Shown in pieces: positions 37,972 to 37,988 of a stretch of DNA of 64,000 nucleotides. The DNA comes from Escherichia coli (lineage in GTDB: Bacteria; Pseudomonadota; Gammaproteobacteria; Enterobacterales; Enterobacteriaceae), in the NCBI RefSeq assembly GCF_024223415.1, contig NZ_CP100500.1. One strand, given 5' to 3'. The translations under genes and the position numbers were made by a program. Position 1 is the first letter of the stretch; every line of letters starts with the position of its first letter. Below the pieces are notes generated by a model that saw only the letters and a program-made list of their open reading frames with translations, was not told the DNA's origin and searched no databases.

Positions 37972-37988
37972 AATTGGTCTTACCAATT
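37972..37988. promoter_or_regulatory. PdhR operator (PdhR box) in the pdhR-aceEF-lpd promoter
   Basis: perfect palindrome AATTGGTcttACCAATT about 32 bp upstream of the pdhR start codon, matching the GntR/PdhR consensus ATTGGT-N3-ACCAAT. Confidence 0.75.

Follow-up and report, generated by a model that had tools for sequence, protein, structure and literature searches.

A perfect PdhR box at the pdhR promoter of an Escherichia coli genome corresponds to the known autoregulatory operator of pdhR-aceEF-lpd

The DNA considered here is a window of 64,000 nucleotides from Escherichia coli (NCBI RefSeq assembly GCF_024223415.1, contig NZ_CP100500.1), that is, the whole stretch that was analysed. It carries an open reading frame for pdhR on the minus strand (37176-37940), which encodes a 254-residue pyruvate-sensing repressor of the GntR/FadR family. 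Downstream of pdhR, and on the same strand, are the reading frames of aceE (34352-37015), aceF (32445-34337) and lpd (about 30813-32237). The reading frame of aroP (38481-39854) is located on the plus strand on the other side of a spacer of 540 bp (37941-38480), and this spacer is bounded by the two start codons, with the pdhR ATG at 37940 (minus strand) and the aroP ATG at 38481. The order and the sizes of lpd, aceF, aceE, pdhR and aroP are the same as in an annotated E. coli record that has a match of 621 bp to the window at 100% identity. The operon structure pdhR-aceEF-lpd is known from the literature, including the work of Olvera et al. 2009 (PMC2759082). The PdhR protein encoded in the window is identical to K-12 PdhR and scores 495.7 bits on the NCBIfam equivalog NF007001 (cut-off 330), with a match over its full length (residues 1-254), so the cognate regulator of the operon is intact. 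On the far side of aroP, genes for a GPH-family cation symporter (468 residues) and a GH43 glycoside hydrolase are found between aroP and ampE (40013-41419 to about 42400). Both genes are absent from K-12, where ampE directly follows aroP.

Within the aroP-pdhR spacer, positions 37972-37988 hold the PdhR operator, or PdhR box, with the exact sequence AATTGGTCTTACCAATT, which becomes AATTGGTaagACCAATT when it is read in the orientation of pdhR. The three bases CTT stand between the arms AATTGGT and ACCAATT, each of which is the exact reverse complement of the other. Direct reading therefore bears out both the coordinates and the symmetry of the perfect 7-3-7 palindrome that had been predicted at this place. 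The box is separated from the pdhR ATG by 31 nt, so that its nearest base is 32 nt away when counted from the A of the start codon; the positions of the reading frames thus agree with a site about 32 bp upstream of the minus-strand pdhR start codon in an intergenic region of 540 bp. The palindrome had also been assigned to the PdhR box of the GntR/FadR subfamily, and this assignment is well founded. The dyad AATTGGT-N3-ACCAATT with its core GGTnnnACC agrees with the consensus in Anzai et al. 2020 (PMC7660256) at all 14 specified positions, and it is the sole exact match to the pattern AATTGGTNNNACCAATT in the 64-kb window, where 100 dinucleotide-preserving shuffles give an expectation of 0.00. 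When up to three mismatches to the PdhR box are allowed, the extra matches in the 64-kb window are at chance level, with 3 found and 3.29 expected. Two looser candidates were rejected, one at window position 41344 with three mismatches to the box and the other, AATTCGTACTACCAACT at 59514-59530, with two mismatches that break the GGT core. Both are at the level of chance, and neither sequence is found in the published table of K-12 PdhR sites.

The position of the box relative to the promoter follows from a published transcription start. Olvera et al. determined by 5'RACE that pdhR transcription starts at an A located 58 nt from the ATG, which coincides with an earlier report, and the promoter string in their paper, GTATGGACATAAGGTGAATACTTTGTTACTTTAGCGTCA, ends at this A (PMC2759082). 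When this string is read by hand on the minus strand of the window, its end falls on 37998, the +1 position. Because the published start corresponds to 37998, the box from 37988 to 37972 spans +11 to +27 and has its centre at +19. The PdhR footprint described by Quail and Guest in 1995 is said to cover the same positions, +11 to +27. A 2025 preprint on pyruvate biosensors likewise gives 11 bp between the PdhR box and +1.

A -10 hexamer, TACTTT (38005-38010, minus strand), and a -35 hexamer, TGGACA (38028-38033, minus strand), can be read by hand relative to the published start. They are separated by 17 bp and are invariant in 81 sequences. A scan of the aroP-pdhR spacer for consensus promoters and terminators reported none; the -10 hexamer was missed because TACTTT matches only 3 of the 6 positions of TATAAT, and the promoter was therefore placed from the published start and by hand. 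The weak -10 hexamer agrees with the 'poor recognition elements' that Olvera et al. note at the pdhR promoter, for which they name Crp, Fnr and PdhR as regulators (PMC2759082). The original prediction described the palindrome as overlapping the pdhR promoter region. This is correct insofar as the box is located at the pdhR promoter, but it does not cover the -35 and -10 hexamers and is found instead in the initially transcribed region.

The operator of the window is the same, base for base, as the K-12 operator at 122044-122060 (centre 122052), and in the alignment with K-12 MG1655 the two sequences are identical from the pdhR ATG to beyond -130. The 17-bp sequence, the flanks in the core promoter and the leader, the distances to the ATG and to the transcription start, and the PdhR protein are therefore all shared with K-12. 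Nothing differs at the operator between the two strains, although they differ elsewhere, for example in the GPH transporter and GH43 genes. Published binding studies on K-12 thus concern identical DNA, and it is from the literature that PdhR binding, repression and the effect of pyruvate are taken here. Anzai et al. list the PdhR box AATTGGTaagACCAATT at position 122052 with a score of 14/14 (Table 1 of PMC7660256); no other box among the 35 sites of that table is perfect. In the same genomic SELEX study the aroP/pdhR spacer gave the strongest PdhR peak, with an intensity of about 9,200-9,900, and the core GGTnnnACC was described as necessary for tight PdhR binding. Studies done by Goehler et al. 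2011 (PMC3265435) used a 37-mer, GCCGAAGTCAATTGGTCTTACCAATTTCATGTCTGTG, as the PdhR operator probe in gel shifts, and a strong complex was formed with purified PdhR. This probe is identical to window positions 37963-37999 and so contains the whole box. The same authors observed an 11.6-fold enrichment in front of pdhR by ChIP-qPCR. Binding of PdhR to the pdhR promoter in vitro has also been demonstrated by EMSA in EHEC.

With respect to pyruvate, PdhR in complex with it is unable to bind its targets according to Anzai et al., so that the operon is derepressed at high pyruvate (PMC7660256), and the paper by Olvera et al. likewise states that pyruvate antagonises PdhR and leads to derepression (PMC2759082). 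The genomic SELEX signal at the pdhR site was saturating both with and without pyruvate (PMC7660256), and therefore the data set itself shows no effect of pyruvate at this site.

The conservation of the operator was observed directly, both within E. coli and among related species. The spacer and its flanks match 5423 of the 5426 complete E. coli genomes, one match being at 100%, and the stretch 37941-38040, which comprises the leader, the operator and the core promoter, shows no less than 99% identity in each of the 5423 genomes with a match. For the comparison between species the pdhR loci of 80 species were used, from the Enterobacteriaceae plus Serratia (Enterobacterales). A PdhR box matching at 14 of 14 positions is present in every one of the 80 species, and in 78 of them it is located 30-33 nt from the ATG. 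Variation is confined to the 3-bp spacer of the box, which is AAG in 72 species, CAT in 3, ATG in 2, ATT in 2 and CAG in 1, and in a column-wise footprint both arms of the box are invariant, as are the -35 and -10 hexamers. Conserved arms around a variable spacer at orthologous promoters are the signature of a site bound by a protein dimer. Since the arms are invariant and the spacer is free to vary, with no compensatory changes, the pattern argues for sequence-specific recognition by a protein dimer and not merely for a structural hairpin.

Taken together with the binding studies, it is almost certain that 37972-37988 is the autoregulatory operator through which PdhR represses pdhR-aceEF-lpd and from which repression is relieved by pyruvate. 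The original prediction of this function is sustained by the identity with the K-12 site, by the location of the box inside a probe that is bound by PdhR and by the intact pdhR gene next to it. No evidence contradicting a PdhR operator was found in this analysis. The operator was already known, and its confirmation adds no new biology, although it provides a positive control in that an experimentally validated operator was recognised from the sequence alone. It is a textbook control point that couples the pyruvate level to the expression of the pyruvate dehydrogenase complex, and the PdhR operator is also used as the sensing element in engineered pyruvate biosensors, as described in the 2025 preprint. 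What is added here is that the arms are invariant in 80 species and in 5423 E. coli genomes, that a second half-site in the spacer can be set aside on evolutionary grounds and that a Cra-like box is the conserved element nearby.

How would the operator work? The winged-helix GntR domain of PdhR is N-terminal, and its effector domain, which is of the FadR type, is C-terminal. When pyruvate is low, a PdhR dimer binds to the operator with each subunit contacting one AATTGGT arm. Because the operator has its centre at +19, shortly after the transcription start, the bound protein overlaps the footprint of RNA polymerase in its downstream part and presumably blocks either initiation or promoter escape. 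Expression of PdhR itself and of the genes for the pyruvate dehydrogenase complex is held down in this way. As pyruvate accumulates it binds to PdhR and lowers its affinity for DNA, and the operon is derepressed. Such a system constitutes a negative feedback loop because pdhR is the first gene of the operon that it represses.

The operator arm has a second copy in the spacer. A partial half-site (cttaccaatt) had been predicted at 38186-38195, closer to aroP. The sequence CTTACCAATT does recur once, but it is found 4 nt further to the right, at 38190-38199, and it lies near the middle of the spacer and not close to aroP. It is part of an 11-nt direct repeat of the operator arm and spacer, CTTACCAATTT (38190-38200), whose distance is 250 nt to the start codon of pdhR and 282 nt to that of aroP. 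Shuffled sequences lead to an expectation of 0.10 copies of CTTACCAATT per window, and about 0.012 extra copies of any operator 10-mer are expected in the spacer, this being a post hoc test. The repeat is rarer than chance and is located 211 bp from the operator, and it therefore merited testing.

Abutting this repeat, and outside the PdhR operator, is a Cra/FruR-like box at 38178-38189, TGAACCGATTCA, which reads TGAATCGGTTCA in the orientation of pdhR. It matches TGAATCGATTCA at 11 of 12 positions, with one mismatch. The Cra/FruR consensus is given as gcTGAAtCGaTTCAgc by Kim et al. 2018 (PMC5888115); the core of the box agrees with this consensus at 11 of 12 positions, whereas the outer gc/gc flanks do not match. 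The columns of the box are 90-99% conserved across species, and 72 of 81 sequences match TGAANCGNTTCA within flanks that are otherwise unconserved and cannot be aligned. The box thus combines the two properties looked for in a Cra/FruR operator, a match to TGAAtCGaTTCA and conservation at orthologous positions, and on these grounds of sequence it is probably a Cra site. According to Kim et al., pdhR belongs to the Cra regulon as determined by ChIP-exo and is repressed by Cra. However, their text places the Cra site 'downstream of two promoters' and names no coordinates for it, whereas the box of the window precedes the mapped start by about 185 bp. These two positions are hard to reconcile, and the box is a candidate for the published pdhR Cra site. 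When the literature was searched in full text for the Cra-like 12-mer, the only matches were coincidences with unrelated primers. Another Cra-like candidate, located inside pdhR at 37774-37785 and with two mismatches, was rejected as a conserved site. It is identical in 30 of the 80 loci and its wobble positions vary as they do elsewhere in the gene, so its conservation does not go beyond the coding constraint.

The central part of the spacer is variable within E. coli. Of the 5423 E. coli genomes, 1060 (about 20%) give no megablast match to the 100 bp around the repeat, the middle of the spacer being replaced in them by an island. In Ecol_AZ162 an island of about 4.8 kb replaces window positions 38131-38310, and it contains a tssD gene for a C-terminally extended Hcp of 593 residues, after which come four bacteriocin-immunity genes and small open reading frames. 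The spacer of CFT073 contains immunity genes, a gene with an HNH motif and an IS3 element inserted 84 bp upstream of the start of pdhR. The positions homologous to 38131-38310 are 14232-19015 in locus L004 and, for the insertion sequence, 3184-4488 in locus L002. These islands leave the core pdhR promoter and the operator untouched. The Cra-like box is retained in both L004 and L002, and in the island-bearing allele its distance from pdhR is kept (239 nt versus 238 nt). In E. coli alleles with the ancestral spacer there is also a short hypervariable patch at 38201-38265, immediately beside the 11-nt repeat in the direction of aroP, where identity falls to 87.5-91% over 100 bp; the repeat and all that separates it from pdhR hardly vary.

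Could the operator work together with the copy at 38190-38200, either through cooperative binding of PdhR or through a DNA loop? Besides the rarity of the repeat, the 211 bp between the two copies amount to about 20 helical turns, which is close to an integral number. The genomic SELEX peak at 121966 lies between the K-12 positions of the two elements, 121833-121843 and 122052 (PMC7660256), but with probes about 100 bp apart (43,450 genome-wide) this placement is weak evidence. Against such a partnership stands the structure of the element itself. Read in the orientation of pdhR, an AATTGGT arm is followed by AAG and then by TGAATCG, so that the partner arm matches at only 1 of 7 positions, the ACC of the core is replaced by TGA and the dyad with its GGTnnnACC core is absent. 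The columns of the element are 20-60% conserved across species. Its occurrence is restricted to E. coli and Escherichia sp. E1V33, with a mismatch in the copy of E. albertii, while in at least 75 other species the homologous position holds unrelated sequence although their operators are perfect. In the island-bearing Ecol_AZ162 the sequence CCAAGCAACA replaces CTTACCAATT and the Cra-like box beside it is kept, and in CFT073 the IS3 element separates this region from the promoter. Cooperation between the operator and the second copy is accordingly very improbable.

The second element is probably not a PdhR site, because it lacks a second arm, its conservation ends at the genus Escherichia and island-bearing E. 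coli have lost it; as judged from these comparisons, a function for it is highly doubtful. Most likely it is a lineage-specific coincidence beside the conserved Cra-like box. There is only a slight chance that the copy in Escherichia represents a recently acquired auxiliary half-site for PdhR. If this were the case, it could allow PdhR to interfere or cooperate with Cra upstream, or to loop to the main operator.

LldR and GlcC recognise palindromes of the AATTGG..CCAATT type, and the site might be shared with, or used mainly by, a paralogous FadR-type regulator of this kind. The family models nearest to PdhR are indeed those of LldR (216.6 bits) and GlcC (134.4 bits). In addition, PdhR binds to AATTGGcCctACCAATT, which is the operator of LldR at lldP (PMC7660256), and this means that cross-recognition occurs in at least one direction. 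However, the site is the top target of PdhR in vitro (PMC7660256) and is enriched with PdhR in vivo (PMC3265435). In a text search of the LldR genomic SELEX paper no mention of aroP was found, and the aroP/pdhR spacer is not among the target rows that the search returned. A leading or shared role for a paralogue is hence very improbable. The operators of the subfamily, such as the LldR box and the FadR box, are likewise short dyads bound by a winged-helix dimer whose DNA affinity is lowered by a small-molecule effector, but they differ from the PdhR box in arm sequence, in the preferred spacer and in the effector; among the LldR sites listed from the LldR paper, for example, TGGTCnGACCA is favoured. 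Among the other K-12 PdhR boxes, those at cyoA and lldP match at 13 of 14 positions, that at grcA at 12 and those at ndh, ppsA and glcD at 11 (PMC7660256). Their AATTGGTnnnACCAATT architecture and their GGTnnnACC core are those of the pdhR operator, but all are imperfect, and the signal at pdhR is the strongest.

An RNA-level function, in which the palindrome would act mainly as a 7-bp hairpin at +11 to +27 of the pdhR 5' leader and affect mRNA stability or translation, is rejected as hardly credible: an AAUUGGU/ACCAAUU stem with a 3-nt loop is indeed predicted in the minimum-energy fold of the 61-nt leader, but this fold is unexceptional (-10.7 against -8.8 +/- 2.3 kcal/mol for shuffled sequences, z = -0.82, with 40 of 200 shuffles at least as stable), the leader has no Rfam match even at E <= 1, the arms show strict invariance in the 80 species with zero compensatory changes while the loop varies, and double-stranded oligonucleotides of the operator sequence bind PdhR (PMC3265435).

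Two conserved blocks are located upstream of the -35 hexamer of pdhR. The first, TTGATTGAAATCAT at 38042-38055, is FNR-like (TTGAT-N4-ATCAA, 9 of 10 positions) with its centre near -50.5, and the second, CATGAAACTGTGCACA at 38053-38068, which reads TGTGCacagttTCATG in the orientation of pdhR, is CRP-like and centred near -62. In a group comprising Lelliottia, Enterobacter and Silvania (loci L028-L035, L044, L047 and L062) an extra ACCAAT hexamer is found at about -101 from the pdhR ATG. This hexamer, which is absent from the window, lies about 43 bp upstream of the inferred transcription start, near the -35 region.
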